Shown here in pieces: positions 833-22,755 of a stretch of 28,996 nucleotides of DNA. Below the pieces are notes generated by a model. That model ran no database searches. It had not been told where the DNA came from and saw nothing but the letters and a program-made list of their open reading frames with translations. The stretch is from a virus. Taxonomy: Duplodnaviria; Caudoviricetes. How positions within the stretch are numbered: the stretch's first letter is position 1; each line of letters begins with the position of its first letter. Where the stretch lies: the IMG/VR virus record IMGVR_UViG_3300030376_003152, positions 1 to 28,996 of that record; one strand, written 5' to 3'. The translations under genes and the position numbers were made by a program.

Positions 833-2359
833 TTAATCAACATTGAATATAGCCCATCTACTTTGTGAAGTACAACTGTGTAGTGTTCTAGGGCTTATTG
901 TAAGTTCAACTTCAACCGGCCCTTTATCATCAGGGTATGGTACAGAAACAGAACGAGTAATATAATCTTTAAATTGTAAGTCTACAAAGTCAGTAGCACT
1001 TCTTTCAAATCTTAGTTTAAGGATATTAGTGTTATCTTCTCCACCTTCTCTCATTAAATCCCAAATCTTTGTATCAGTAATAAGAAGTGTTAAGGATATT
1101 TCATATTGTCTTTGTCCGGCAGTATGGTTAGACATAACTTGATTATTATAGTTACCAATAAATCTTTGACCTACAATGTTATTATTTATTGTTAAACTAC
1201 CTGATTTGACTCTAGCAAAAGTTTGACCATATACTTCAATAGTACCATCATGGAATAAGTATGGTATTTTATTCTCTGAATAGTTTGCAAAAGCCGTTAC
1301 ATCTGTTACTTGTCTTTGTGGTGAATAATTTTGTGGTGCATCAAATGCACTACGAGTTACTAACTCTACTGTATTTTTAACTTCTTGACCTTCTTCAAAT
1401 GTTATATTAAGAGAATTAACTTGACACCCTGTAAAGATTCTAGAGTATACTTCTTCTTCAGGAGTTGCAGATGCTTGTACTGTTTGAACTGAATAGTCTG
1501 CACCGGATTTACCACCTTTTGCATATGCAACATCTAAAGCAAATGAAGGTAATGTTCCGTTATTGTTTTCAGTCATAGTATAAACAAATGGATTACTTGC
1601 ATGTATTAAACCATGAGTACTATCATCAAGAACAACGCCTGTAGGTGTAGGGTCAGGATATGTATGGTGTCCTACACCTGAATCTGTTAATCTTCTAATG
1701 ATTGCACTATTAGTTCCATCTGTATCTATGGTTATTCCCGATGTATCTGTAGTAGTAGGACTAGACATAGTAAAACTCATACTTCCTAATGTATAGTATA
1801 ACCACATTGGATTATTCATTGATACTTCTAAACTTCCACCACTTACTGTTTCACCTTTAGTAAATTGAAATCCTAAATTTCTAGAACCACCTGCAACTAA
1901 ATTTAATTCACCTGTTTCTACTTCTACATTTGGTGGTGAAAATGTATTTACAAGACCTAACCAATTGTCAGATAATATAGTTGTTTTAGAATTAACAGGT
2001 GGCGTAGGAACGGGTGCTCCAAAAGATTGTATTGTCGCTTTAACATCTGTATCTGCACCCATATCCCCTCTTATATCTCCTGTAACTGTTATAGTGCTTA
2101 CAGTATTAGATTCAATAAGATATATGTTCTTTTTAGTGGCATCTGCCGTCAATTCTATTTCTATAAAACAACCAACATATAGATTAGGAACTAAATCTAT
2201 TCCTATATCTCCACCCGCATATCCATCTAATGTAACAGTACTACTATTATTTGTTGTATTAGTAGCAGCAGTTTGCACATCTGCACCTAGATATATACGG
2301 GCTTCCGGTGCTAAACTAGCAGTTACTCCTGCTCCTACAAATATCTCATTACTTACCAT
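833..2359 (-). CDS. Major tail tube protein
   Basis: 508 aa, T/S/G/V beta-rich; tail-tube-like segments (FTGCQVNSLNITF, SGSLTINNN, RQYEISLTL); directly upstream of chaperones. Confidence 0.75.
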   Translation of the reverse strand: MVSNEIFVGAGVTASLAPEARIYLGADVQTAATNTTNNSSTVTLDGYAGGDIGIDLVPNLYVGCFIEIELTADATKKNIYLIESNTVSTITVTGDIRGDMGADTDVKATIQSFGAPVPTPPVNSKTTILSDNWLGLVNTFSPPNVEVETGELNLVAGGSRNLGFQFTKGETVSGGSLEVSMNNPMWLYYTLGSMSFTMSSPTTTDTSGITIDTDGTNSAIIRRLTDSGVGHHTYPDPTPTGVVLDDSTHGLIHASNPFVYTMTENNNGTLPSFALDVAYAKGGKSGADYSVQTVQASATPEEEVYSRIFTGCQVNSLNITFEEGQEVKNTVELVTRSAFDAPQNYSPQRQVTDVTAFANYSENKIPYLFHDGTIEVYGQTFARVKSGSLTINNNIVGQRFIGNYNNQVMSNHTAGQRQYEISLTLLITDTKIWDLMREGGEDNTNILKLRFERSATDFVDLQFKDYITRSVSVPYPDDKGPVEVELTISPRTLHSCTSQSRWAIFNVD

Positions 2360-6082: not shown

Positions 6083-6769
6083 CTATGCAAGCCATTTAGC
6101 CCAAGCAACGCCTTTAGTTATAGCCGCACCTAAACCTAATCCACTTACAGGAGGTGTATATGTCATTTGACCTGTATTAGGGTCTATCCAATATGCATTG
6201 TTCATATTATCGTATCCGGCAGGTGGAACAGGATATCCACTACCATTGTTCATAGCCATTTGTTGTTGCATCATAGTATTATTAATTCCTGTTCCCATAT
6301 TGCCGCCTTGTATGTTTTGTGGGTTCATTCCCATTGAGTTAGCCATTGGCGGTTGTGTAGGTGCTGCTGCTCCACTAAATCCTTGAGACTCTAAATATTG
6401 TGCTTTAGCCATTCTACGTTGCATAATTACTTCTGAATTAATTGCTGAATTTAATAAATTTTGTAAATCTAATTCTATGTTAGCAGCAGTAATTTCTTGA
6501 AAAGTACTTTTAACGTCTGTGTTTAAAACAAGCCCCGCACTTGTTGTAGTAAACTCTAATTGGGCTAACATATCACCAACAACTCTAGCAACAACATCTT
6601 CAATCAATTGTTCCATGCTAGATAAGAATGCTTCTCCATGATATTGAAAGAAATCTTCTACATGATTCTCTTGTAATGTTAATAAATTGTTCATTGTTTT
6701 AAATTGATTTTGTTGACCATTTGATATAGTATTAGCCAATTGTGTGTTGCTTGTTCCGAATAATCCCAT
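6083..6769 (-). CDS. Hypothetical protein: helical N-half, Q/M/P/N/G low-complexity C-half, amphipathic C-terminal helix
   Basis: 228 aa; NTMMQQQMAMNNGSGYPVPPAGY; ends GLGLGAAITKGVAWAKWLA; TAATG overlap with upstream gene. Confidence 0.7.
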   Translation of the reverse strand: MGLFGTSNTQLANTISNGQQNQFKTMNNLLTLQENHVEDFFQYHGEAFLSSMEQLIEDVVARVVGDMLAQLEFTTTSAGLVLNTDVKSTFQEITAANIELDLQNLLNSAINSEVIMQRRMAKAQYLESQGFSGAAAPTQPPMANSMGMNPQNIQGGNMGTGINNTMMQQQMAMNNGSGYPVPPAGYDNMNNAYWIDPNTGQMTYTPPVSGLGLGAAITKGVAWAKWLA

Positions 6770-7455
6770 TAGTTCTCACTCTCCGCCTGTACGCCCTTGC
6801 TTGTAACCTTAACGCCTTCGGTCAATAAGACTTTCACTCTCTTGGTATTAGATTCGTTTTCTATTAACAACCTAAATAACTCTTCTTCTTTACTTTCAAC
6901 AGTTCCTTGAGGAGGTTTAATTGTCCAACCTAATCCCGCAAGTGATTGTATATCTCCTTGTTTTAGACTAGTTAATGGCCCACTAGATAATGGATTTAAA
7001 TTAGGCATTTTTGGAATATAAGCACTGTATGACAACCCATGTTCTTCTGCTAACATTTGTTGTTCTAACATTTCATATTGTCTGTGTATCTGTGCATGTT
7101 TATCACAATAAGTTCCTCTCATTGGATATCCTTTTCTAACTTTATGTAGTGGTAATGGTGGTCTTAAATTATCACTTGCTTCCCAAACCTTTTGAGTTCC
7201 ACAAACAACACATCTGTCTTTCATGTTATATTTGAAACTATATGGAAATTTTAAAAAAGATTTTTTTTCCGGTTTTAATATTTTAATTATTTCTTTCAAT
7301 TGTTTTTTTGGCTTTAAGTTTTTAAATTCGTACAACATTACTGTACCTGCTGCTCTCGCTTGGTCATGCCTATCCATGAAGGCATTTGACGCTACAGTTG
7401 TAGTGGTTGCACCAATTAAATTAGGTGGCTGATAGTTCATCGTCATGGTCTTCAC
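6769..7455 (-). CDS. Zinc-finger protein (CxxC...CxxH) with ArfGAP-like motif
   Basis: RCVVCGTQKVWEASDNL...GTYCDKHAQIHR; directly downstream of GTPase. Zinc ligands seen; GAP identity speculative. Confidence 0.6.
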   Translation of the reverse strand: MKTMTMNYQPPNLIGATTTTVASNAFMDRHDQARAAGTVMLYEFKNLKPKKQLKEIIKILKPEKKSFLKFPYSFKYNMKDRCVVCGTQKVWEASDNLRPPLPLHKVRKGYPMRGTYCDKHAQIHRQYEMLEQQMLAEEHGLSYSAYIPKMPNLNPLSSGPLTSLKQGDIQSLAGLGWTIKPPQGTVESKEEELFRLLIENESNTKRVKVLLTEGVKVTSKGVQAESEN

Positions 7456-7457
7456 AC

Positions 7458-8129
7458 CTAGTAGTCCTTTATCATTGTTAAGATTCCTCTGTATACCATT
7501 GTGGAGTCAGTTTTAGCACTAACAATGTATTTGAAACAAGGTATTCCCTTTTCATTTAACTTTTGCATTCCATTTTTAAATGCCTCAAAAATAGGATGTT
7601 TTTCAATTGGCCCATCATGTTCATATTTGTCTTTCCATAAATCATATTTATTGGCCCATATACCTACTGCAATAGGATAATCGTGGTCTTTTTTCTTTTT
7701 TAATTTATTATTAACATTCCAATGAGGTGAACAAATACTATCTACTAAGAATGTCCAACATAATTGTTGTTCGATATCATAATGTTTATTCATGTGCCTA
7801 TCATCAATTAAAAAAATAATGTATTTTACTCTACGTTCTTTCATATCTTTTATCCATTCTGTCCAATAAATAGTTTGTCCACCGATATCGGCAGTTTTTA
7901 CAGTATGAGCATTACCATCTAATTTTATATATTTTCTAGATGCCCTTTCTAATCCTACTGTTCTTTCCATAATATCGGGTACTTCGCCTCTTGTTCTCAA
8001 TTGGTGGTGTAAGGTGGTCTTCCCTGCTTTACTCGCACCATATACACCAAAGGGTATTGAATGTAATCTTTGATATATTTTATTCAATCCCTCAACCATT
8101 AATATGGCGAATCCCGCCATTACTGACAC
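7458..8129 (-). CDS. Ras-superfamily small GTPase, Arf/Sar1-like
   Basis: All five G motifs: G1 GASKAGKTT, G2 RTVG, G3 DIGGQ, G4 WANKYD, G5 VSAK; N-terminal hydrophobic/amphipathic helix. Confidence 0.9.
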   Translation of the reverse strand: MSVMAGFAILMVEGLNKIYQRLHSIPFGVYGASKAGKTTLHHQLRTRGEVPDIMERTVGLERASRKYIKLDGNAHTVKTADIGGQTIYWTEWIKDMKERRVKYIIFLIDDRHMNKHYDIEQQLCWTFLVDSICSPHWNVNNKLKKKKDHDYPIAVGIWANKYDLWKDKYEHDGPIEKHPIFEAFKNGMQKLNEKGIPCFKYIVSAKTDSTMVYRGILTMIKDY

Positions 8130-8133
8130 AATA

Positions 8134-8358
8134 TCACCACAAATGATTCCAAAAGTCTACCAATCCATTCCACAATATTGAGATTGTATTGACCCCAAAT
8201 ATTGCTAATGTTTGACCTATAAAGAAACAAGCAATGGAACTTATAATACCCCATATCCAAAACCTTGCTCTAAGAAACCAAATATCAGCAGAATGTGCTC
8301 TTTGCAAATCATAAGCCATAGCGGTTTCATCAAAACCCATTAGGATTTCTCCAACCAT
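8134..8358 (-). CDS. Small membrane protein (74 aa)
   Basis: Hydrophobic segment FWIWGIISSIACFFIGQTLAIFGV and Trp-rich amphipathic tail; SD GAGGTGA upstream. Confidence 0.75.
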   Translation of the reverse strand: MVGEILMGFDETAMAYDLQRAHSADIWFLRARFWIWGIISSIACFFIGQTLAIFGVNTISILWNGLVDFWNHLW

Positions 8359-8371
8359 TATTTCACCTCAA

Positions 8372-8797
8372 TCATTGTTCCAATGTTAAAAAGGAAGGAC
8401 TTACACCTTCTGTATTGCTCTTAATTACGGGTAAATTATTATCACCATAAACGTTAGTAGGGGATTGTACTTGGTTATTCCATGTCTGTTGGAAATTTCT
8501 AAAAGACTCTCTAACTCTTTTACGGTTCTCTTCTTCTCTTGCTCTACGACTCCAATAAGCATCAATGCGTCTTTGTAATAATGTTTCTTCGATATAATCA
8601 TTAGCAATTAAATCAAATACTGCTTTCATTATCATAATTCCACCTATTGTAGATATACCAAACAATACTGCGTGTGCTTCAACAGTATAAGGAAAACCTA
8701 CACCATATTGGGCATAGAAGTAAACGTTTACTCCACTAACTGCACCAACAAAAAGAATAGTCATTACTAATCTTGTATCTGTATCTATGCTTGGCAT
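8372..8797 (-). CDS. Membrane protein with two TM helices and a charged coiled-coil tail
   Basis: TM-like LVMTILFVGAVSGVNVYFYA and AVLFGISTIGGIMIMKAVF, then RRAREEENRKRVRE; ATG at 8797 (MPSIDT) preferred over 8812. Confidence 0.75.
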   Translation of the reverse strand: MPSIDTDTRLVMTILFVGAVSGVNVYFYAQYGVGFPYTVEAHAVLFGISTIGGIMIMKAVFDLIANDYIEETLLQRRIDAYWSRRAREEENRKRVRESFRNFQQTWNNQVQSPTNVYGDNNLPVIKSNTEGVSPSFLTLEQ

Positions 8798-8802
8798 TGT
8801 AA

Positions 8803-9081
8803 TCACGCCCACTCTAGGGAGTAATGACCTGTTCCTGTTATATCAACAAAAAGACCTTTAGCACAAAATCTACCATGCATATCATATTCAAAAGAACCAT
8901 TAGCGGCTAATACCATTCTACAAACTTCTACATCACCGGATGCAGAAGCATCATCACTATCATAAACAGAAATAGTTACTGCTGAACCTGAAACATTAGA
9001 GGCATGTACACTCATCAGTTTACACTTACCTTTGAAAACCAATGCATCAGCCGTCTTGACTCCACTACCACTACAACCTAT
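8803..9081 (-). CDS. Small beta-rich protein, probable virion accessory
   Basis: Track ORF 8803..9042; the frame is open upstream through ATA at 9081 (IGCSGSGVKTADALVFKG), which overlaps the previous TAG. Start uncertain. Confidence 0.55.
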   Translation of the reverse strand: MGCSGSGVKTADALVFKGKCKLMSVHASNVSGSAVTISVYDSDDASASGDVEVCRMVLAANGSFEYDMHGRFCAKGLFVDITGTGHYSLEWA

Positions 9082-9503
9082 TCTCTCACTTCCTTATTGT
9101 CTTCTGAAGGTGTTTCTTTCTTAGGCGTTTCTATCTTTTTTGCTTTTTTAGCAGATGTTTTCTTTGCAGGTGCTTTTTTAGCAGGTGCTTTTTTAGCAGG
9201 TGCTTTTTTAGCAGGTGCTTTTACCTTCTTAGGAAATAATATTTTTTGTGCTTGATTACGGGTATCGCCTTCTTTTAACTCATTAGTTAATCTAATTAAT
9301 TCATTAAACTTATAGTCATTAAGTCTTGCTATATCGGCTTCATCCATCTTATCGAATGTACATGTAAGGTTTTCACCACCTAATATGTTTATTACGTGGT
9401 CTAATGGTATTGTTGTTTGTTGGTTAAAATGTATAGGGTATATTACCCCACCGATTTTAATATCTCTTGGGCTTGCTTGGTTCGTTAATGTTACTTGTGT
9501 CAT
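9078..9503 (-). CDS. Protein with histone H1-like basic KKAPA-repeat tail
   Basis: KKVKAPAKKAPAKKAPAKKAPAKKTSAKKAKK; SD AGGAGA upstream. Confidence 0.75.
   Translation of the reverse strand: MTQVTLTNQASPRDIKIGGVIYPIHFNQQTTIPLDHVINILGGENLTCTFDKMDEADIARLNDYKFNELIRLTNELKEGDTRNQAQKILFPKKVKAPAKKAPAKKAPAKKAPAKKTSAKKAKKIETPKKETPSEDNKEVRE
9166..9222. repeat. 15-bp tandem repeat (GCAGGTGCTTTTTTA, about 3.8 copies) encoding KKAPA
   Basis: Units start at 9166, 9181, 9196, 9211. Confidence 0.9.
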
Positions 9504-9957: not shown

Positions 9958-11310
9958 TCAAGCACTCTTTATGTTAGTTATCTTACCTTGACCTTTGAAG
10001 AAAGAACAACATACTTCACCAATAGTTCTGTACATTGCTTGGTTTCCTAAAGTTCCAACACCGAATGGGTTTCCGTTAGAAATTCCATCCTCGAAATATT
10101 CTGTAGGTTTCATAACTGATAACCATAGATGGTCTGTATCTAAGATAAAGATATCACTCAATCCATTTGTTAGGCTTGCTTCAGTTGTTGAAGCCATATC
10201 CTTACAAGGGATTAATGGTATGTCATAGTATGTTGCAACTCTGAAACCAACTTCAGCACCTTTAACTCCACGAACACCATTATGTGTAGGAACAATTTCT
10301 TTCCTATCCATAAATCTCTCTTGACTTTGTAGTAAGTCAGAGATGTGTTGTATAGTATCGTAGCCTGTTAAGATACATTTTGGGTTTCCACCATTTTGAC
10401 GGATTCTGCGAATCATGTCATTTAATAGTGTTAGAGTTAATACTCTAGCAGAACCACTTGCATAACTTGCACCGTAATCAACTTCAGCATCCAAGAAATC
10501 AGGCACGGCAGTAATAGTTTCAGTACTAACTGTAACTCCTCTGTCTTGTCCATAAATTCTTACTAATTGTGGGTCAAGTGCTTCGTTAGTACCACTTTCA
10601 CCATCTTCTGTTAAGTTAGCAGTATACATTGCACCTATTTCAGCACCATCTGTTACAACCTTATACAAAGATGTATAGTTGTTAGTCATACCTGTAATAC
10701 CTGCTGCTGAATATGTTTCAAGAGGTGTTAATAACATCTTGTTCTGTACTTCAGCATGGTGCTTACCCATATCTTCACGGATTATAGCACGTATATCACC
10801 AACACCGTCATCAATAGCAGCAAGTTCCATTGCAAGTTCTGAAAACTCGAATTTATGTGCTATTGTTTTAGGCGTTACTTTTAGGGTTGTGTATTCAGGG
10901 GCTAATGCCGGAATACCGGATAATGCTGCATTCTCAGCAACTCCACCAATTAGGTCTGCTTTAGGAGATGCACTTCCTGCTGCTCCTGAACCAATTGCAA
11001 AAGAAGAACCACTACCACCTTGAGGTCGGCTCTTTAGAACTCTCCAACCACTTGATGTATATGGCCTCTTAGCAATCATAGACAAAGCATTAACTTCTTG
11101 GTTAAGCATTGACCATACTTTCTGTCCGTAAAGAACATTGTATAGGTCTGTCATTCCTGTTGCACCGCTAAAAGCGGTTTGTAAATCGTGTCCTGCTCCT
11201 GCTAGTCCACCAACTACTCCTGCACTCTTCAACAAAGCATTACCGTTACCGCCTCTTAAGCCGTATGATGCTGCTTCTAAATCTCTCATTGTTTTTATAT
11301 ATCCACTCAT
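9958..11310 (-). CDS. Major capsid protein (HK97 fold)
   Basis: 450 aa after protease/scaffold; HK97-like segments YGQKVWSMLNQEVNA, VTPKTIAHKFEFSE, YYDIPLIP, IFILDTDHL, QGKITNIK; SD GGAGTGA. Confidence 0.9.
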   Translation of the reverse strand: MSGYIKTMRDLEAASYGLRGGNGNALLKSAGVVGGLAGAGHDLQTAFSGATGMTDLYNVLYGQKVWSMLNQEVNALSMIAKRPYTSSGWRVLKSRPQGGSGSSFAIGSGAAGSASPKADLIGGVAENAALSGIPALAPEYTTLKVTPKTIAHKFEFSELAMELAAIDDGVGDIRAIIREDMGKHHAEVQNKMLLTPLETYSAAGITGMTNNYTSLYKVVTDGAEIGAMYTANLTEDGESGTNEALDPQLVRIYGQDRGVTVSTETITAVPDFLDAEVDYGASYASGSARVLTLTLLNDMIRRIRQNGGNPKCILTGYDTIQHISDLLQSQERFMDRKEIVPTHNGVRGVKGAEVGFRVATYYDIPLIPCKDMASTTEASLTNGLSDIFILDTDHLWLSVMKPTEYFEDGISNGNPFGVGTLGNQAMYRTIGEVCCSFFKGQGKITNIKSA

Positions 11311-12537: not shown

Positions 12538-15159
12538 TTAGTCGGCACTTTCAGGAGGAAATTTTAATTTAGCATATTTATCTTCTCTTATATCCCATAA
12601 ATTTTCATTATCTTTATTGTCTAACATTTCTTGTTTTTTACCTGTCCATGCTATCCATGTATTTTTCTCATCTAATGGTACAACCCGCAGATGCATTCTT
12701 GTATCGAATTTATCTCCTTCTAATTTATATTCGTGATATCCATCTTTCTGAACACCTAAAATTAAATCTCCACTATCTAATAAATCATCTTCATCAACAT
12801 TAGTTGCTACTATAGCAGGGAACTTACCCGATTTACCAAATAAGTTATACACATCTTCAGTATCTTCTATGTCTATAGTCCATGCTAGTTTCTCATCTTT
12901 TATTAACAAAACAAAATCTAAATTACCATCTTCACGTTGATATATTTTAAATGTAGTATTTTTAGGAATGTTCTTTTTTAATTCCTCAATATCTTTTTCT
13001 AAAACATCTTCTCTTGCTTGAAATTTATTTGGGTGTATATATACAATATCATCTTGTTTCTTCATCCATGACATAAGACTATCTTCACGCCCTTCAAATA
13101 ATTCATCAAAATCTTCTTTATAGTGTTTCACAACAAAATCTAAAACCTTATTGAATGGTTTCGGTCTGTCTCCATATTCTATAATATCATTCCTAATAGC
13201 CATTCTTAATTCTGCTCTTTTTGTTTTTATAATATCAGTAAGTTGTTCTTTCCATAAATCTATATTATATAATGCATTTTTCTGCATTAGTGTATCTCCT
13301 TCAAAACCATAAATAGTAAAACCATCTAAATTTTCTTTTAGAATAATTTCAGCATTACCGTGTATATCATCAGTAACATAATAAGATTTTTTAATTCCGG
13401 CCTTTTTATGTTTTCTCTTACCTTGCACTTTATCTGATAACCCACTACTTACTCTAAATAATCCACCCATTGTTCTACCTGCTACAAACTCTACAAAATC
13501 GGCTAAAGATTTTTTAGTTTTACCTGCAAGTTGTTCTAATGTTATAATGCTATCTGATTCAGTAACTTCCGGTAATTCTATTACTTTAGCAGAATATAAA
13601 CTAAAACCATCTTTTGTCTTCTTTACTTCATCTACCTTGACTCTAATTATATCTCCAATTTTTACACATTGTTTTGTATTTAGTGCCTTACCTACAGGAA
13701 TGTATGCTTTATCTTCTAATTCTACGGTTTTATATTTTCTAGTATCTTCAGCAGATACAGGGCCAATTCCCATAGTGTAACTATGTAAACCACTTTTGGT
13801 CTTCTTATCATCTAAAACTATTACATCTAAATCAATAAATTTTTTCCATTTAATCCATTTTGGGTTTTTCTTTTTACCAATAAGATAAGTAGATTCAATA
13901 TCTTTAATCACTACACCTTCAGAACTAGGTAATATCATAATATCTTTAGCATAGTCTTCTATTTCTTTTAATGAATCTGCAATGCGAGTATCTTTTTTAG
14001 ATGGGAATGCTAAATTTTCTGTAGAATGCTGACTATATTGATAGAATAAAGTATTTATTCTTTCACGTAGGGGTTCATCTGCAACCATTTTACCTTCATG
14101 TTTCATTATATCAAATACGTGAGCAGATAATCTACCTTTAGTTTCCTTTTTGAAAACATGTGATATTGTATCTGCTCTATGTAATGGTTCATCATTCAAA
14201 AATAGAGTTAATTCAGCATCTAATATACAGTCTCCGAAATTTTTCTTTTTCATTTCTTTTACCTGTTGAGGACATTTATCAGTAATATCTTTTTTATTAT
14301 AAGAATAAATAGTTACAGTATCATCTGTTTTATGTATTTGTATTCTCATACCATCATATTTTTCTTGTACTAACCATTCTCCACTAAATCCCTTTAGTTC
14401 TTTAATATCATCTATTTCAAAAATTCTATACAATGGCTTGTTAGGAATTAAAAAATCAACCTCTGCTTTTTCTTCTTCACTTTTTTGAGCCTTTGCAATC
14501 TGTACATCTCTTAAATTTTCCCACTTAGATTCAGGATATATTTCCGTATACATTTCTTGTATTTTTACCATACCTGCTTTAATTTTATTATGTATTCTTT
14601 TATCATTAGTGCTTTCATTACCATAATGTTCTATTACGAATAAAGGTATATCACTAACTTTCAAATCTAATCCCATAATACCTCTTGTTATTAAATCGGG
14701 TTTCATGTCAAATTGTTCCCACAACTTTTCCGGTAAAGCATTAGAATGACTTCTCATAGCATAATGTAAAAATGCAATTAATACCTCTTCTTTTTCTAAA
14801 AAAGTATCAATTACTTTAGTATCAAAATGTTTACTAAAAGGGTCGCTTATTTCGTCTGATTGAAATCTAAGTTTTTTTACGGCTTCAAATACCTTTCTTG
14901 CTTCATCAGAAGTTGGGTCAACTACATCTTTATCAAACAAAACATCTTCATCTATATATTTTTTTAATTCCGTTGCAAAACTACTAATGTTATCAAAATC
15001 TTCCTTCATCATCATTATGACTTTTTTCCATTCAGAAGTATATTCAGCAGGGTCTTCTCTTGCTGAAAGATAGGCATATCTAGTACGTTCAAAAAAATCT
15101 AAAATGCGTTGTGTTAACGAATCTTTTTCTTTTTCAAATGCTAAACCTGTTTGAGTCAT
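12538..15159 (-). CDS. lig: ATP-dependent DNA ligase with N-terminal extension and C-terminal LigD-phosphoesterase-like domain
   Basis: Motif I QEKYDGMRIQIH, III ILDAEL, IIIa HVFDIM, IV EGVVIKD, V WIKWK, then OB-fold start DLDVIVL; 873 aa. Confidence 0.9.
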   Translation of the reverse strand: MTQTGLAFEKEKDSLTQRILDFFERTRYAYLSAREDPAEYTSEWKKVIMMMKEDFDNISSFATELKKYIDEDVLFDKDVVDPTSDEARKVFEAVKKLRFQSDEISDPFSKHFDTKVIDTFLEKEEVLIAFLHYAMRSHSNALPEKLWEQFDMKPDLITRGIMGLDLKVSDIPLFVIEHYGNESTNDKRIHNKIKAGMVKIQEMYTEIYPESKWENLRDVQIAKAQKSEEEKAEVDFLIPNKPLYRIFEIDDIKELKGFSGEWLVQEKYDGMRIQIHKTDDTVTIYSYNKKDITDKCPQQVKEMKKKNFGDCILDAELTLFLNDEPLHRADTISHVFKKETKGRLSAHVFDIMKHEGKMVADEPLRERINTLFYQYSQHSTENLAFPSKKDTRIADSLKEIEDYAKDIMILPSSEGVVIKDIESTYLIGKKKNPKWIKWKKFIDLDVIVLDDKKTKSGLHSYTMGIGPVSAEDTRKYKTVELEDKAYIPVGKALNTKQCVKIGDIIRVKVDEVKKTKDGFSLYSAKVIELPEVTESDSIITLEQLAGKTKKSLADFVEFVAGRTMGGLFRVSSGLSDKVQGKRKHKKAGIKKSYYVTDDIHGNAEIILKENLDGFTIYGFEGDTLMQKNALYNIDLWKEQLTDIIKTKRAELRMAIRNDIIEYGDRPKPFNKVLDFVVKHYKEDFDELFEGREDSLMSWMKKQDDIVYIHPNKFQAREDVLEKDIEELKKNIPKNTTFKIYQREDGNLDFVLLIKDEKLAWTIDIEDTEDVYNLFGKSGKFPAIVATNVDEDDLLDSGDLILGVQKDGYHEYKLEGDKFDTRMHLRVVPLDEKNTWIAWTGKKQEMLDNKDNENLWDIREDKYAKLKFPPESAD

Positions 15160-16174: not shown

Positions 16175-16405
16175 TTATCCCTCTATTGTTTCTATTATGT
16201 TATGGATATCTGACCAATCCATCTTGGCTATTTTATCACCCGACATTTGATTTGTGTTAGTTTGCATTCGTGGGTGAGGACTATCTACAACAACATATCC
16301 TGATTTCATTAATAAATTATCCTTATTATAAACCGCTTCTTCAAGAGTTTTAACCTTAGACACTAATTCTTTTAATAACATTAACATTTCATTATTCTCT
16401 TTCAT
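16175..16405 (-). CDS. Small scaffold-like/core protein (76 aa)
   Basis: N-terminal coiled coil, LLMKS site, C-terminal MDWSDIHNII resembling scaffold C-terminus LSWNEIADIA; SD GGAGG. Confidence 0.65.
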   Translation of the reverse strand: MKENNEMLMLLKELVSKVKTLEEAVYNKDNLLMKSGYVVVDSPHPRMQTNTNQMSGDKIAKMDWSDIHNIIETIEG

Positions 16406-16473
16406 ACTTGTTCCTCCCTATACGCTATAACTTTCTCTTGTATCCTTTCTTTTAAAAATGCTTTCCAATTCAT
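16402..16473 (-). CDS. 23-aa mini-ORF MNWKAFLKERIQEKVIAYREEQV (not in ORF track)
   Basis: SD GGTGA upstream, shared W-x-x-F-L-K leader, ATGA overlap with next gene, fills the intergenic gap exactly. Confidence 0.55.
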   Translation of the reverse strand: MNWKAFLKERIQEKVIAYREEQV

Positions 16474-16477
16474 GTGT

Positions 16478-16738
16478 TCACCTATTACTGTATAGTTTTC
16501 TTTCTGCTTGTTCATCTCGTAGATTTTGTGTTGCTCTATCTATGAAGGACATATCTCCTCTTGTTTTTGCTCTTACTTGTGTTTGTTCTTTCTTTTCAAA
16601 CATTTCACATTGTCCTGTAGGGCTAATAGTTATTACATCTAATATACAATGCATATTTTCATTAGAACGACAAGTATTGGCTTTGCATATTTCTACTACG
16701 CAATCACCTTTTTCTTTTACAATACTTTGCCAACTCAT
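16478..16738 (-). CDS. Cys-rich small protein (DUF1540-like pattern) with MSWQSIVK leader
   Basis: CKANTCRSNENMHCILDVITISPTGQC. Confidence 0.65.
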   Translation of the reverse strand: MSWQSIVKEKGDCVVEICKANTCRSNENMHCILDVITISPTGQCEMFEKKEQTQVRAKTRGDMSFIDRATQNLRDEQAERKLYSNR

Positions 16739-16744
16739 TCTAAA

Positions 16745-17146
16745 TCACTCAAGCATCCAATCATCATTCATAGGTGTCAAAAATTCTTTAGCATCTTCTA
16801 ACTCATCATTAAAAGATAATTTCATTACCTTTTCCAAAAATTTTCTCATCTCTTTTGTATCATCATCTAAATAAGTAGCAAATAATATCCCTGTATAATT
16901 TTCTTTTAGTTCTTCATCATAAACATTACATTGAATCATATATTCATGAGTATTTGGTTTAGGTGCATCTTCAGAGTCATAGGAAAGGTTATCATAAATA
17001 TCTTTTATTTCATCGTTACGGTAGCCATCAATTAAATAACGAGTAGATTCTATTTCTACATTTTTATATCCTGATAAAACGTTATCTATTTCTACAACTG
17101 CCTCCATAACAGTTAGTTTCCTTTTTAGTATATCTTGCCAACTCAT
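16745..17146 (-). CDS. Acidic hypothetical protein with MSWQDILK leader
   Basis: 133 aa; coupled to upstream gene by ATGA overlap. Confidence 0.75.
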   Translation of the reverse strand: MSWQDILKRKLTVMEAVVEIDNVLSGYKNVEIESTRYLIDGYRNDEIKDIYDNLSYDSEDAPKPNTHEYMIQCNVYDEELKENYTGILFATYLDDDTKEMRKFLEKVMKLSFNDELEDAKEFLTPMNDDWMLE

Positions 17147-17433
17147 TTTTCATCACCTTTCTCAAAACCATCAGAAAATTCATTGTCTAATAATTCTTTA
17201 ATTTCTTGTGGGATATCTTCATCCTCATTGTAAATTTCTTTATCGTCTTTAGTTATTTTAACGATGTAATCATTATGAGCACTTCTACTAATATTACTTA
17301 CTTCGTAGCCTTTACCTTCTAAAAAATCTATTACTTGGTTAGAATACTGTTTATCTGCACCGTCATCAAAACCAAATTTAGAAAAGGAATCTTCCCAATC
17401 GTATCTATTTTTTAGAATGTCTTGCCAACTCAT
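17143..17433 (-). CDS. Acidic hypothetical protein with MSWQDILK leader
   Basis: 96 aa; SD GAGTGA. Confidence 0.75.
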   Translation of the reverse strand: MSWQDILKNRYDWEDSFSKFGFDDGADKQYSNQVIDFLEGKGYEVSNISRSAHNDYIVKITKDDKEIYNEDEDIPQEIKELLDNEFSDGFEKGDEK

Positions 17434-17438
17434 TTAAA

Positions 17439-17723
17439 TCACTCTGAATTATATTTTCTGTCTTCAATTTGGGTATATGGTTTACTATTATTTTGTTCGA
17501 CTATTCCAAACTCATAACTACTTGTGTTACCACACTTAGGACAGGTATGCCGATAAAACAAAGCAAAACCATCAGGACTTTTATCGGTACTTTGAAGCAT
17601 AGTAGGAAACTGTTCGTTCCATTCTTTACTATCATCACTTTCATAACCACAATGATGACACATGAAAACTGTGCCTTTATTCGAATCACCAAAACTTTTT
17701 CGTACTATATCTTGCCAACTCAT
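17439..17723 (-). CDS. Zinc-ribbon protein with MSWQDIVRK leader
   Basis: FMCHHCGY...TCPKCG. Confidence 0.75.
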   Translation of the reverse strand: MSWQDIVRKSFGDSNKGTVFMCHHCGYESDDSKEWNEQFPTMLQSTDKSPDGFALFYRHTCPKCGNTSSYEFGIVEQNNSKPYTQIEDRKYNSE

Positions 17724-18049
17724 TCTAAATCACCTTTCTTTTTTGGATAAACCACTGTTCTTAATTGATTGTAAAGAGTCTCGTAACCCTTCCTTAGTTT
17801 AGATGCGGTGGCTACTAAGTCTAAGTTACTTTCGTCATATTTCTCTAATTTCTTTCTTAATACCTTATCAGACTTAACTAAATCTAATGACTTCATCTCT
17901 GAAATTAAATCAGTCAACTTAGTTACTTCTTGGCCCATGAACTCTGTTGGTTCAGCAGCCTGTAATAGTTTTTTGATTCTCTTTTTTTGTTTAGGTTCTA
18001 ACTTAGCAACAAGACCTCTATCTTCTTTAACTACTTCAAACCAATCCAT
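17720..18049 (-). CDS. Helical hypothetical protein with MDWFEVVK leader
   Basis: 109 aa; internal LVKS site; SD GGTGA. Confidence 0.7.
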   Translation of the reverse strand: MDWFEVVKEDRGLVAKLEPKQKKRIKKLLQAAEPTEFMGQEVTKLTDLISEMKSLDLVKSDKVLRKKLEKYDESNLDLVATASKLRKGYETLYNQLRTVVYPKKKGDLE

Positions 18050-18052
18050 TTC

Positions 18053-19243
18053 TTATTCACCTAACCTTTTTCTTACATTTGATTTACCAAGAAAATTTTC
18101 CCCTGCACTTTCAAGTTCAGGAAATTCTCTCTCTAAATCAATATCTCTAGGCTCATCTATATCTATTAAAGGTTCTTCAATATTAGGACTTGCCATATAG
18201 TCTCCACGTAATTTTAATATTGCTATAATAAATTCAATAACATCTAGATACTTTTCAACTTCTTTTAATTCACTTTGAGAAGGTTGTCTCAAATGTGGTT
18301 CTAACTTATCTTGTAGTTCATCTGCTTCATTTGCTATATCAATTAATACACTTTCTAATTTATCTACAGGGCTTCTAAATAATAATTTTTCATCTTCTTC
18401 AGTATATTCTTCTGCCTTTTTATGAAGTATAGTCATTAGTTCTTCTGTTAATGTTTCAAAATCTAATTTAAAATGTTCTAATAATGAGCCTCTACTACTA
18501 AATATTTCCTTTCTAGAAAGGGCTTTGATACCTAATCCTTCTACTATTTCGTTAAATAATTCTTTACTATTTTTACCACTATATTCTTTGTAGGCAATCT
18601 GACCATCTATTATCCAATCTTCTTCTGAATCATCCCACTTAGCAGAGGTATCTTCTAATAAAACTGAATGTAACTGACTTACAGGTTTTCCATCTAAAAA
18701 GAAACTTATTATTTTATTTATATCAACTTTCTTAAATTTCTTTTTAAACTCTTGTACATCTTCATCTTCTACCCTAAAACCGTTTTTGGCTACTATTGTA
18801 AAAACACTTTCTAAAAGACTAGATACTTCTGTTTTCCTTGTTTCAGAACGCTGAGGTTTTACCTTTTTACTTCCTATTTTTGTATCTTTACCAAACAAGG
18901 CCAACCTGTATAATACATCTTTTATTTTATCAAGTTCATCTACATCATCTTGAGTTAGAGTTTTCTTATCCATTACATTTCCTAAATTTAAATTATTAAC
19001 AATCTCTCTTATGATTCTTGGAAACATTGTCTTTGATTCATTCATATCTGTAAATTTATAGGTTAATGGATTAGTGTTCCCTTCTATACCTTTTATTTTG
19101 GCAGAAATAAATTCCTTTAACTTATCTCTCTCAAAATAATCATATGTTTCATTAATTTCTTTTTCTGATACTCTGAGTTTTTTTGCTTCTTCATATAAAA
19201 TAGGGTCAATTTCTCTCGCCTTTAGTATATTCATGAAACTCAT
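18053..19243 (-). CDS. Hypothetical protein, 396 aa, MSFMNILKA leader
   Basis: Long K/E-rich ORF; SD AGGTGA. Confidence 0.7.
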   Translation of the reverse strand: MSFMNILKAREIDPILYEEAKKLRVSEKEINETYDYFERDKLKEFISAKIKGIEGNTNPLTYKFTDMNESKTMFPRIIREIVNNLNLGNVMDKKTLTQDDVDELDKIKDVLYRLALFGKDTKIGSKKVKPQRSETRKTEVSSLLESVFTIVAKNGFRVEDEDVQEFKKKFKKVDINKIISFFLDGKPVSQLHSVLLEDTSAKWDDSEEDWIIDGQIAYKEYSGKNSKELFNEIVEGLGIKALSRKEIFSSRGSLLEHFKLDFETLTEELMTILHKKAEEYTEEDEKLLFRSPVDKLESVLIDIANEADELQDKLEPHLRQPSQSELKEVEKYLDVIEFIIAILKLRGDYMASPNIEEPLIDIDEPRDIDLEREFPELESAGENFLGKSNVRKRLGE

Positions 19244-19252
19244 ACTCTCACC

Positions 19253-19486
19253 TTAAAATGGTATATTTTCACTTTGATTCTTTCTTTTCTTTGGTAAAAG
19301 TATTGCATTTGGAACTTCTGCACTATTAGGAGCAGGTCTATGGTTTTCAATTGGTTTAGCAACACCAACTGTAAAATCTCTATTCTTTTCTATTCTTCCA
19401 TCTGCGATACTTTTCTCACGTATTCTTGCTTCTTTTAATTCTCTTTCTAATTGTCTTACACCTTTATCTTCACTCATTTTCTTCAC
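19253..19486 (-). CDS. Hypothetical protein (77 aa)
   Basis: Co-oriented, tight packing; real start may be the internal MSEDK following GGTGA. Confidence 0.6.
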   Translation of the reverse strand: MKKMSEDKGVRQLERELKEARIREKSIADGRIEKNRDFTVGVAKPIENHRPAPNSAEVPNAILLPKKRKNQSENIPF

Positions 19487-19488
19487 CT

Positions 19489-19758
19489 TTATATGTTTTG
19501 AGACATTCTTTCTTGCTCTTCTTGTAATCTCTTTTGTTCTTCTTGTAATTTCTTTTGTTCTTGTAGGGCTTGCTTTTGTTGTTCTATTTTTTCTTTCATC
19601 TTACCCGCAGCAAAATTCCCTGCTGCACCTATAGCCTTTTTTCCCATTGGCGTTTTAGCAGCAGCCAAACCTGCCCTTCCTGCTACTGCTAAAGCAGGTA
19701 AAATCTTCTCTACTTCTTCTGTTTTTAAAGTATTAAACCACTCATCTTTTTCTACCAT
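19489..19758 (-). CDS. Hypothetical protein with EWFNTLK leader, Ala/Gly-rich segment and Q/E coiled coil
   Basis: 89 aa; SD AGGTGA. Confidence 0.65.
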   Translation of the reverse strand: MVEKDEWFNTLKTEEVEKILPALAVAGRAGLAAAKTPMGKKAIGAAGNFAAGKMKEKIEQQKQALQEQKKLQEEQKRLQEEQERMSQNI

Positions 19759-21396: not shown

Positions 21397-22755
21397 TCAT
21401 TCCTCCTTATTTATTGTTTTGTGTGTTTTCTGTATATTTTCGTAATCTAACTTATCCATTAAAGTCATTTTACATTTATCGTGTAATTTTGCAACAGTTG
21501 TAGGGTCTATACCATATTGTGAAAAATCATATCCAACATGGTCTTTGTGATTTTCATATTTCATTAATTGGAAAAGTTCATCCTTTCTTTCTTTATACCA
21601 ATCAGTTTTTTTATATGATTTCTTCATACGAATTAGTTCTAATAAAATATCTGCATTAGCCCCCTTCATTCTAAAGTGTGGTCTACATTTAGTTAAAATA
21701 TTAACTACATCATCACCGGAATAAAAATTTAATCTATTAACGGGTCTTGTTGCTTGTGGAGATTTTTGGTCAAGATGAAGCCTACCACAACCTAAAGATT
21801 TATGCATTTCTAACATAAATGCTTTACCTCTTTCACCTGTAGCAATTAATCCAACTCTAGGATTATGGTTTTTATCCATCGTAATATAACCATCTGAGTC
21901 TATAAATGCAGCAGTATAAGCATAAATATCTTTTTTAATGTCATCGTGTATTTTATAAAAAGCACCATTAACATTAGTAATATTCATACTTTTAGCCATT
22001 TTAGATATTATGGATGGCGAAGTTTTCTTAAACAAATTTGAAGGCAATCGCTCATGTATTTGTCTTGATGATATACCATTTTCTTCACAAACTGCTTTAA
22101 GTATTTCTTGTTTAATAATATCTTTAGGGCTTACTCCTAACATATAGTCCTTTAGAGATTTCTTAAATGCTTTTTTATTAACCACCATTTGTTTAGATAA
22201 TTTTGCATATTCTTTGTTAAATGATAATCCTTGTCTATCTAATTTTGCTTCCCAATATTTACATAGACTATCTATCATATCTCTTCTAGCATTTTCTTCT
22301 GTTACATAAGATAATTTAATTAAAGTATCTTCATTGCAGGTCATTTCCTTCACGATTGGTTTGTATTTACTTATCCAATAAGCATTTTCTATTGTATTAT
22401 CTAAATGTTCTCCATATGCTTTAATTAAATTGTCAATAGATTCAGTTATTGCAATCTTTTCCTCACCCTTTAACGTTCTTCTATATTTTCTAAGTTGTTT
22501 AATTAAAGAAGGTACATCATTATCTTCTACTTGTAATTTTTTAACATTAGTTGTTAATTCCTTTCTTGCTTTAGATAATGATAATTGATATTCTGCGGCA
22601 AACCTTTTTTCAACATCAAAATGACTAGAAATTCTTTGCTCTTTTAGCCAAGTTTTTTTCATTTTATCTGTTAATTCTTTTTGTCTTTCTACTAACTCAT
22701 TTTCTTGGTCTGCGAGTTCAGCCGCTTGTCTAAGTTTGTCTCCTTTTTCACTCAT
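21397..22755 (-). CDS. LAGLIDADG endonuclease-domain protein with long helical N-terminus and wHTH-like segment
   Basis: YAYTAAFIDSDGYI motif, HKSLGCGRL, PHFRMK; upstream GISSRQIHERLP helix-turn-helix-like segment. Confidence 0.75.
   Translation of the reverse strand: MSEKGDKLRQAAELADQENELVERQKELTDKMKKTWLKEQRISSHFDVEKRFAAEYQLSLSKARKELTTNVKKLQVEDNDVPSLIKQLRKYRRTLKGEEKIAITESIDNLIKAYGEHLDNTIENAYWISKYKPIVKEMTCNEDTLIKLSYVTEENARRDMIDSLCKYWEAKLDRQGLSFNKEYAKLSKQMVVNKKAFKKSLKDYMLGVSPKDIIKQEILKAVCEENGISSRQIHERLPSNLFKKTSPSIISKMAKSMNITNVNGAFYKIHDDIKKDIYAYTAAFIDSDGYITMDKNHNPRVGLIATGERGKAFMLEMHKSLGCGRLHLDQKSPQATRPVNRLNFYSGDDVVNILTKCRPHFRMKGANADILLELIRMKKSYKKTDWYKERKDELFQLMKYENHKDHVGYDFSQYGIDPTTVAKLHDKCKMTLMDKLDYENIQKTHKTINKEE

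Follow-up and report, generated by a model that had tools for sequence, protein, structure and literature searches.

A predicted small GTPase of mixed Arf-type and Ras/Rab-type traits in a conserved five-gene cassette of a magrovirus-type tailed virus

Small GTPases of the Arf, Arl and Sar1 type and the Asgard archaeal protein GerdArfR1 (8OUN; bioRxiv 10.1101/2024.02.28.582541; PMC11914678) share with the viral protein described here the motifs G1 to G5, an N-terminal amphipathic helix, a DxGG-type G3, a tryptophan in the register of Arf W78 and the lack of a C-terminal CAAX motif. Three structural determinants are given for the Arf toggle in PMC2063696, namely the N-terminal helix, a short interswitch and the signature wDvGGqxxxRxxW, and a Leu-Asp pair in G1 is named as Arf-specific in PMC11914678. 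The N-terminal residues of 8OUN agree with those given for GerdArfR1 in the preprint bioRxiv 10.1101/2024.02.28.582541, in whose accessible text Korarchaeia are the only group outside Asgard archaea reported to have ArfR and the word “virus” does not occur. A further point of comparison is the conserved operon arvABC (ArvA/OapA) of Euryarchaeota and DPANN archaea, in which PMC10927574 describes a small GTPase with a predicted amphipathic N-terminal helix, which acts on the membrane and drives vesicle formation, next to a zinc-finger protein proposed as its GAP. Giant viruses encode Rab, Ran and Ras/Rho proteins according to PMC9546365, which does not list Arf in its accessible text. Canonical Arf/Arl genes with Gly2 appear in IMG/VR and GVMAG giant-virus records (L224 to L259; 34 of 37 pattern matches); these are of eukaryote type (Gly2, GLD, PTIGFN and WDxGGQxxxRxxW) and are assigned to viruses of eukaryotes.

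Set against these systems, the viral GTPase departs from Arf and ArfR in an interswitch that is five residues longer, in the absence of the signature arginine, of the aromatic residue preceding it and of the G1 Leu-Asp pair, in a basic insertion, in a longer hydrophobic N-terminus and in forming a long-stemmed clade of its own. It is like arvABC in pairing such a GTPase with a putative zinc protein in a conserved gene block and unlike it in being viral and in having two membrane-protein genes alongside, a comparison made with trees that contain no ArvA sequence. With the giant-virus proteins it has in common that it is a virus-encoded Ras-superfamily switch, whereas it occurs in a magrovirus-type tailed virus, represents a separate lineage and has its own partner genes. 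Virus-encoded small GTPases as such are thus already known from giant viruses; a GTPase in magroviruses was not found in the main texts and supplements searched (subscription papers and other supplement files could mention one), and the lineage and its cassette, as recognized from sequence, appear to be without a published account.

A five-gene cassette in a magrovirus-type structural module

The window, that is, the whole stretch of DNA analysed (28,996 nucleotides), is a 29-kb virus record, 31% complete, in which the genes for terminase, portal, ligase, protease, capsid, tail tube and tail chaperone all lie on the minus strand. The presence of terminase, portal, protease, capsid and tail-tube genes in this IMG/VR-type virus record bears out the viral origin that a preliminary description, made from the letters of this DNA, had given the GTPase. 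The description did not place the gene in a cassette, which came to light from the neighbouring genes. The features that matter here are as follows.

12538..15159, minus strand: ATP-dependent DNA ligase, inside the structural module (PF01068, E 1e-28)
9958..11310, minus strand: major capsid protein, upstream of the cassette (phrog_24667, E 2e-23; PF17236)
8372..8812, minus strand: cassette gene 1, 146 aa, with two predicted transmembrane segments (~15-33, ~48-66), followed by a charged helix and, at the C-terminus, a conserved FLT motif
8134..8358, minus strand: cassette gene 2, 74 aa, with a single predicted transmembrane segment (~38-56) and, at the C-terminus, an amphipathic helix (muH 0.63)
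7458..8129, minus strand: cassette gene 3, predicted small GTPase, 223 aa, G1 to G5, N-terminal helix 1-24, insertion 134-152
6769..7455, minus strand: cassette gene 4, 228-aa Cys/His protein; C82, C117 and H120 invariant in both subfamilies
6083..6769, minus strand: cassette gene 5, 228 aa, MGLFG start, helical core and a linker rich in Gln, Met, Asn, Gly and Pro
833..2359, minus strand: tail tube protein, downstream of the cassette (PF18906, E 1e-14)

A DNA ligase inside the structural module is described as a hallmark of group A and group B magroviruses, which are linked to Marine Group II archaea (PMC5434244) and rank among the most abundant ocean viruses (PMC11706807). Since the window combines a head-tail module with an embedded ATP-dependent DNA ligase, which is the magrovirus (Poseidoniales virus) trait, it probably represents a magrovirus structural module with a Marine Group II host. 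The same module holds, between terminase and portal, a 452-aa gene (21397-22755) that weakly matches a homing endonuclease (phrog_5046, E 1e-5), consistent with the nuclease insertion described for the structural modules of magroviruses. A 141-aa protein (9078-9503), encoded two genes behind that of the capsid, has a histone-H1-like tail of PAKKA repeats whose copy number varies; it is possibly a DNA-condensing protein. A run of short acidic ORFs (16175-19758) includes several that begin with MSWQDI or MSWQSI (16478-17723), suggesting a paralogous family or a common N-terminal tag.

The five cassette genes are closely packed, the start of gene 5 overlapping the stop of gene 4 by one base. Genes 1 and 2 had no family in Pfam, PHROG or NCBIfam, and genes 4 and 5 could not be assigned to a family; gene 5 ends in a hydrophobic C-terminal helix (AWAKWLA). 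Its invariant residues make it likely that the Cys/His protein encoded by gene 4 binds zinc. Its model has a core pLDDT of ~90, a best Z of 4.3, no Foldseek match at E<=0.001 and an uninformative best value of 0.79 in the ESM Atlas, leaving the protein without a fold match. ArfGAPs have a C4 zinc finger with an invariant arginine finger. An assignment of gene 4 to this family was considered and dropped, given that its fourth ligand is His, that the Arg following this ligand is Lys or His in distant members and that a fold match was lacking, although absence from the match lists does not by itself exclude a family.

All five genes were found in each of the 121 loci whose flanks are long enough, from a total of 142 in which some contigs are counted twice. 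To count presence on a set chosen by terminase rather than by the GTPase, we took the best 80 of 175 terminase relatives and examined 49 longer records: the GTPase is present in 43 of these and in 14/14 of those that are at least 90% complete, while the six records that lack it are 42-82% complete. In subfamily 1, to which the window belongs, the cassette lies between the capsid and the head-tail/tail-tube genes in every locus long enough to include them. A second subfamily of the GTPase, ~30% identical, emerged when 1.84 billion representatives were searched with a profile (86 matches); its 80 loci keep the order of two-transmembrane protein, one-transmembrane protein, GTPase, Cys/His protein and Gln-rich protein, with positional neighbours in 76-80 of the 80 loci, some short upstream calls being in wrong frames. 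Profile homology between the subfamilies is evident for the Cys/His (97.6%) and Gln-rich (93.9%) proteins and weak for the two membrane proteins (18% and 3%), so that the latter are matched by position and hydropathy. All four subfamily 2 records examined encode a related capsid protein (43-46% identity) at a distance of 20-23 kb from the block, which sits among other neighbours instead of beside the capsid gene. The same gene order at a distant site, together with the homology of the Cys/His and Gln-rich proteins, argues that the cassette moves as a unit. In 77/80 subfamily 2 loci, by position, a sixth gene for a two-transmembrane protein of ~80 aa directly follows the Gln-rich gene (for example L143:7619-7885 and L180:8172-8429); the window has no counterpart.

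A scan for promoters and terminators gave results at chance level (14 versus 20 expected, and 2 versus 2). Contigs of two seawater metatranscriptomes, both from a single study, agree almost exactly with the capsid gene and with 169 bases of the gene at 6083-6769; they do not cover the GTPase and are uninformative about it either way. A pattern scan of 185,579 GTDB genomes, which can find only close relatives, left 2 of 15 candidate stretches, both of them magrovirus-like contigs binned in a single Maricaulis MAG, and thus revealed no close cellular copy of the GTPase. With a wider profile, the 301 genomes of that MAG's phylum gave, outside the MAG itself, generic P-loop matches only (best E 8e-9), and GenBank phages gave no match to the GTPase at E<=1. 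The Maricaulis MAG contains three contigs with the GTPase (L141, L142 and G001:C111:1202-1909), and the two that were examined have magrovirus-type ligase, protease and capsid genes; these contigs look like mis-binned viral DNA and could make the GTPase family appear bacterial.

The GTPase gene and its product

The reading frame at 7458-8129 starts with GTG, preceded by a putative Shine-Dalgarno-like GTGGTGA, and has an in-frame ATG at codon 4 that serves as the start in other gene calls. The five G motifs listed in the preliminary description could all be located by translation: G1 GASKAGKTT at residues 31-39, G2 RTVG at 56-59, G3 DIGGQ at 81-85, G4 ANKYD at 159-163 and G5 SAK at 204-206. The element YWTEW, said to follow DIGGQ, is also there, within TIYWTEW (86-92), separated from it by two residues and hence not adjoining. 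The N-terminal extension, put at ~22 residues, exists and measures ~24 residues from the GTG or 21 from Met4; it forms a hydrophobic and then amphipathic helix (1-24). As described, the protein has neither Gly2 nor CAAX, its C-terminus being KDY, and its wider characterization as a small GTPase of the Ras superfamily with an amphipathic N-terminal extension, a DxGG G3 and a tryptophan in the Arf register holds.

Among 547 candidates, 360 relatives were found at E<=0.001, and the best 120 are all at least 61% identical. An alignment of 72 sequences from the two subfamilies has GKTT, RT, DxxG, W92 and NKxDxW invariant in 72/72, which includes the Ras-superfamily (TRAFAC) motifs G1 GxxxxGK[ST], G2 Thr, G3 DxxG and G4 NKxD. 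Against close loci, dN/dS is 0.048-0.081 in 6/6 pairs, indicating strong purifying selection, and in 130/130 shared loci the GTPase exceeds the capsid protein in conservation (median 79% versus 69%). Given these relatives, the invariant motifs, the low dN/dS and a modelled G domain, the reading frame is not a chance one. The catalytic Gln position holds Gln in 45/72 sequences and often Glu or Asp instead, and G5 is degenerate in subfamily 2, which suggests that GTP turnover may be unusual. The subfamily has a median pI of 9.3; both subfamilies have a basic/aromatic insertion between alpha3 and beta5, with median net charges of +3 and +7, and the beta2 region is basic as well. This combination of a high pI with basic loops would equally fit binding to nucleic acid.

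An AlphaFold2 model built from 45 sequences (pLDDT 72.6, pTM 0.74) comprises a G domain and an N-terminal helix, with residues 5-8 and 46-59 below pLDDT 50 and helix 2-22 at low confidence (pLDDT 48-58). A VIA search with this model gave a Z of 13.7 (rmsd 3.3-3.7, 158-169 residues aligned), with Asgard Rag, Arf6, G-alpha-i, G-alpha-s, SR-beta and Arl2 tied at 13.4-13.7, and Foldseek returned at least 500 matches at E<=0.001, with Rab33, RhoA, Gz and Ras first. Judging by the model, the protein is a G-domain fold, and neither fold search ranked Arf above Rag, G-alpha, SR-beta, Rab or Ras. Its motifs suggest that it would bind and hydrolyse GTP.

Relation to Arf and other GTPase families

The preliminary description had seen Arf-family signatures in the protein. 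Among the traits of Arf, the N-terminal helix, the GG of G3 and the tryptophan are present, while the short interswitch, the signature Arg, the G1 Asp and Gly2 are missing. The N-terminal amphipathic helix is clearly present: its best 11-residue moment (muH 0.71) is reached by 0.2% of 5000 shuffles (p 0.002), and the family median of 0.70 compares with 0.69 in the Arf references, the viral N-terminus being longer (median 25 versus 15-18 residues) and more hydrophobic. The interswitch is a different matter. From the G2 Thr to the G3 Asp we counted 24 residues in 6/6 viral proteins measured, compared with 19 in 27/27 references, made up of 13/13 eukaryote-type Arfs and 14/14 ArfR-like proteins (three near-identical to the aligned 8OUN, the other eleven ArfR-like by motif only), and 23-25 in four Rabs. 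The viral interswitch is thus of Ras/Rab length, ~10 residues longer again in subfamily 2, and its hairpin aligns without gaps to KRas, whereas a gap of seven residues is needed against GerdArfR1. The signature wDvGGqxxxRxxW is half matched, with the D, the GG (67/72) and the final W kept, the leading W replaced by A, S or T and the R by W in 69/72. Positions 2-3 of G1 are A/P and S/T, without the Arf-specific Leu-Asp (Asp26), and Gly2 occurs in 0/37 subfamily 1 sequences. Sar1, Arl8 and ArfR also lack Gly2, so its absence is not decisive against Arf.

Sequence comparisons incline toward Arf, at low scores. Arf is the best Pfam match of the GTPase, below the cut-off (21.2 versus 22.3 bits), and GerdArfR1 (8OUN) is the best PDB sequence match, a weak one (E 0.13 for the single sequence, 0.007 for the profile). 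Profile scores of the GTPase were 86 for ArfR-like, 76 for Rab, 72 for Arf, 67 for Rup1-like, 45 for Roc and 30 for MglA, and its orphan relatives scored 129/120 with ArfR/Arf versus 96 with Rab. These orphans, metagenomic Arf-like proteins, are the nearest relatives found (profile score 233, 18-28% identity). They include P0272, P0287, P0295, P0298, P0305, P0318, P0322 and others, come from ESM Atlas clusters mostly labelled bacterial, and resemble the viral GTPase in the N-terminal extension, in DH/DD-R after beta4 and, in several, in WxxW for RxxW. They are full-length GTPases from metagenomic sources that do not look like magrovirus, and tracing where the family came from will hinge on them. 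Scans of viral sequences with P0298 and with an alignment of three sequences gave no context for them, P0287 had no relative among 178 candidates, and the context search yielded one weak plasmid match.

References for the trees were gathered by motif scans and family searches, and include rows that we take, from their motifs, to be Rup1-like and MglA-like; Sar1, SR-beta, Rag, ArfL, G-alpha and ArvA are omitted. The careful tree (83 rows, 174 columns) unites the viral GTPases with 17 orphan proteins in one long-stemmed clade (100/99), a grouping that is partly circular because the orphans were picked by the viral profile, and this clade joins Arf+ArfR at only 85/79. In a quick tree with Roc (69 rows, leaving out 21 rows that include three long orphan branches), Arf+ArfR (91), Rab+Roc+Rup1-like (92) and the viral/orphan clade (99) meet without a resolved order. 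AU tests rejected neither a tree with MglA as sister (p-AU 0.34) nor one with eukaryotic Arf as sister (p-AU 0.12). The phylogeny proposed in the preliminary description therefore yields a divided answer: the free trees contain no grouping with Roc or MglA, an MglA sister relationship is compatible with the data, and the viral proteins form, with the orphans, a clade of their own that takes the Arf side in the careful tree only.

Rab and Ras proteins have DTAGQ and a C-terminal CAAX; the viral protein has DIGGQ and ends in KDY without a prenylation motif, and the Rab references form a separate clade. It is a stand-alone protein of 223 aa without COR, its Roc score of 18.3 lies below the cut-off of 27, and the Roc clade stands apart, all of which speaks against Roc/Roco. 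MglA-type proteins have GTPGQ or TVPGQ as G3 and an adjacent MglB roadblock gene, whereas here G3 is DxGG, the MglA profile score is the lowest and Pfam found no roadblock domain in the neighbours. Membership of the GTPase in the Arf family proper is thus not supported; as far as the sequences tell, it is a separate, long-stemmed lineage that leans to the Arf side and for which no donor can be named.

Candidate roles of the cassette

Our preferred reading, which we hold tentatively and at somewhat less than even odds, is that the GTPase docks at the inner face of the host membrane and acts as the GTP-driven timer of a five-protein viral machine for late membrane remodelling or virion release. 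GTP binding and hydrolysis by the GTPase would drive this machine, and the protein would sit on the membrane through its long hydrophobic-plus-amphipathic N-terminal helix and basic loops on the same face. In the G-domain topology, the loops before beta1, beta4 and beta5 and the beta2-beta3 turn lie opposite the nucleotide site; the helix and the basic alpha3-beta5 insertion would share one face, which suits docking to an anionic membrane. An interswitch as long as that of Ras makes it unlikely that the helix is capped and then let go in the Arf manner. Docking would probably be constitutive or controlled by partners, namely the two membrane proteins. Partner binding would depend on the nucleotide state, with the GTP form recruiting or releasing the two soluble proteins onto the two small membrane proteins. 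The Cys/His protein would be a candidate regulator and the Gln/Met/Gly-rich protein a candidate membrane-active effector, with a breach or bud in the murein-free envelope as the outcome. From membrane docking to envelope breach, these steps draw on anatomy and analogy, the four partners having no known fold or family.

Late remodelling or lysis is favoured because the cassette is near-universal in the relatives tested, is directed to the membrane, is co-oriented with the structural genes, here lying between the capsid and head-tail genes where late genes lie, and because no lysis genes have been identified in these viruses (PMC10791045). Egress of archaeal head-tail viruses is described as lysis through unknown genes in PMC10791045, and ArvA (above) offers the analogy of a GTPase that acts on membranes. 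The capsid-adjoining position is not kept in subfamily 2, which counts against an egress role. The same fact weighs on the improbable alternative that the cassette serves virion assembly, by tethering heads or tails to the membrane or by having the GTPase gate head-tail joining or packaging: the place of the subfamily 1 cassette in the structural module, the extreme conservation, which suits a core morphogenetic step, and the basic surface would all agree with it, whereas unrelated genes surround the subfamily 2 block, 20-23 kb away from the capsid gene, and no requirement for a small GTPase is known in HK97-type assembly.

It is also conceivable, though unlikely, that the cassette remodels the host without lysis, through ArvA-like vesicles, superinfection exclusion, or a block of division or defence at the membrane. 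Superinfection exclusion systems typically are small membrane proteins, as are the products of genes 1 and 2, and an amphipathic-helix GTPase beside a zinc protein repeats the arvABC theme; against this, no neighbour matched ArvB (DUF2073) or ArvC (DUF2072) in Pfam at E<=0.05, and accessory host-interaction genes are usually patchy and fast-evolving, while this GTPase is found in all 14 near-complete records and exceeds the capsid protein in conservation. A similarly low probability attaches to a true, fast-evolving Arf/ArfR protein of Asgard-like or eukaryotic source, with an interswitch toggle and GTP-dependent membrane binding. The Pfam and PDB matches, the profile scores of GTPase and orphans, the Arf/ArfR side taken in the careful tree and the AU result for a eukaryote-type Arf sister would accommodate this, as would ARL4, an Arf family member with a long interswitch (PMC2063696). 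The Ras/Rab spacing, the hairpin alignment, the Trp in place of the signature Arg, the missing Leu-Asp and Gly2, and the group of Arf+ArfR apart from the GTPase once Roc is added (SH-aLRT 91, quick tree) argue against it. This true-Arf reading is about mechanism and could go together with any outcome proposed for the cassette. Least probable of all, and in our view quite improbable, are virion-carried entry proteins forming a trans-envelope DNA-delivery channel gated by the GTPase; the membrane segments, the hydrophobic C-terminal helix of gene 5 and the site in the structural module would fit, whereas no similarity to PHROGs tail or ejection families was seen and a virion would presumably have no ready supply of GTP.

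To return to the preferred reading of a membrane-docked timer, it is tempting to speculate that magroviruses exit by a GTP-timed membrane-breaching machine of their own, in which a deep Ras-superfamily lineage sister to Arf/ArfR works with virus-specific regulators and small membrane proteins. We consider this full version possible but doubtful. If true, this would make magroviruses the first tailed viruses with lysis or egress under GTPase control, and would supply the missing counterpart of holin and endolysin for hosts without murein. How tailed viruses leave murein-free archaea is presented as an open question in PMC10791045, and the cassette is a concrete, expressible candidate. We caution against citing the GTPase as a viral Arf and against using it to argue for transfer from eukaryotes or Asgard archaea. 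What it contributes is a deep lineage of the Ras superfamily in which Arf-type traits (N-terminal helix, GG and W) are combined with a Ras/Rab-type long interswitch, a mixture that bears on how the Arf toggle arose.
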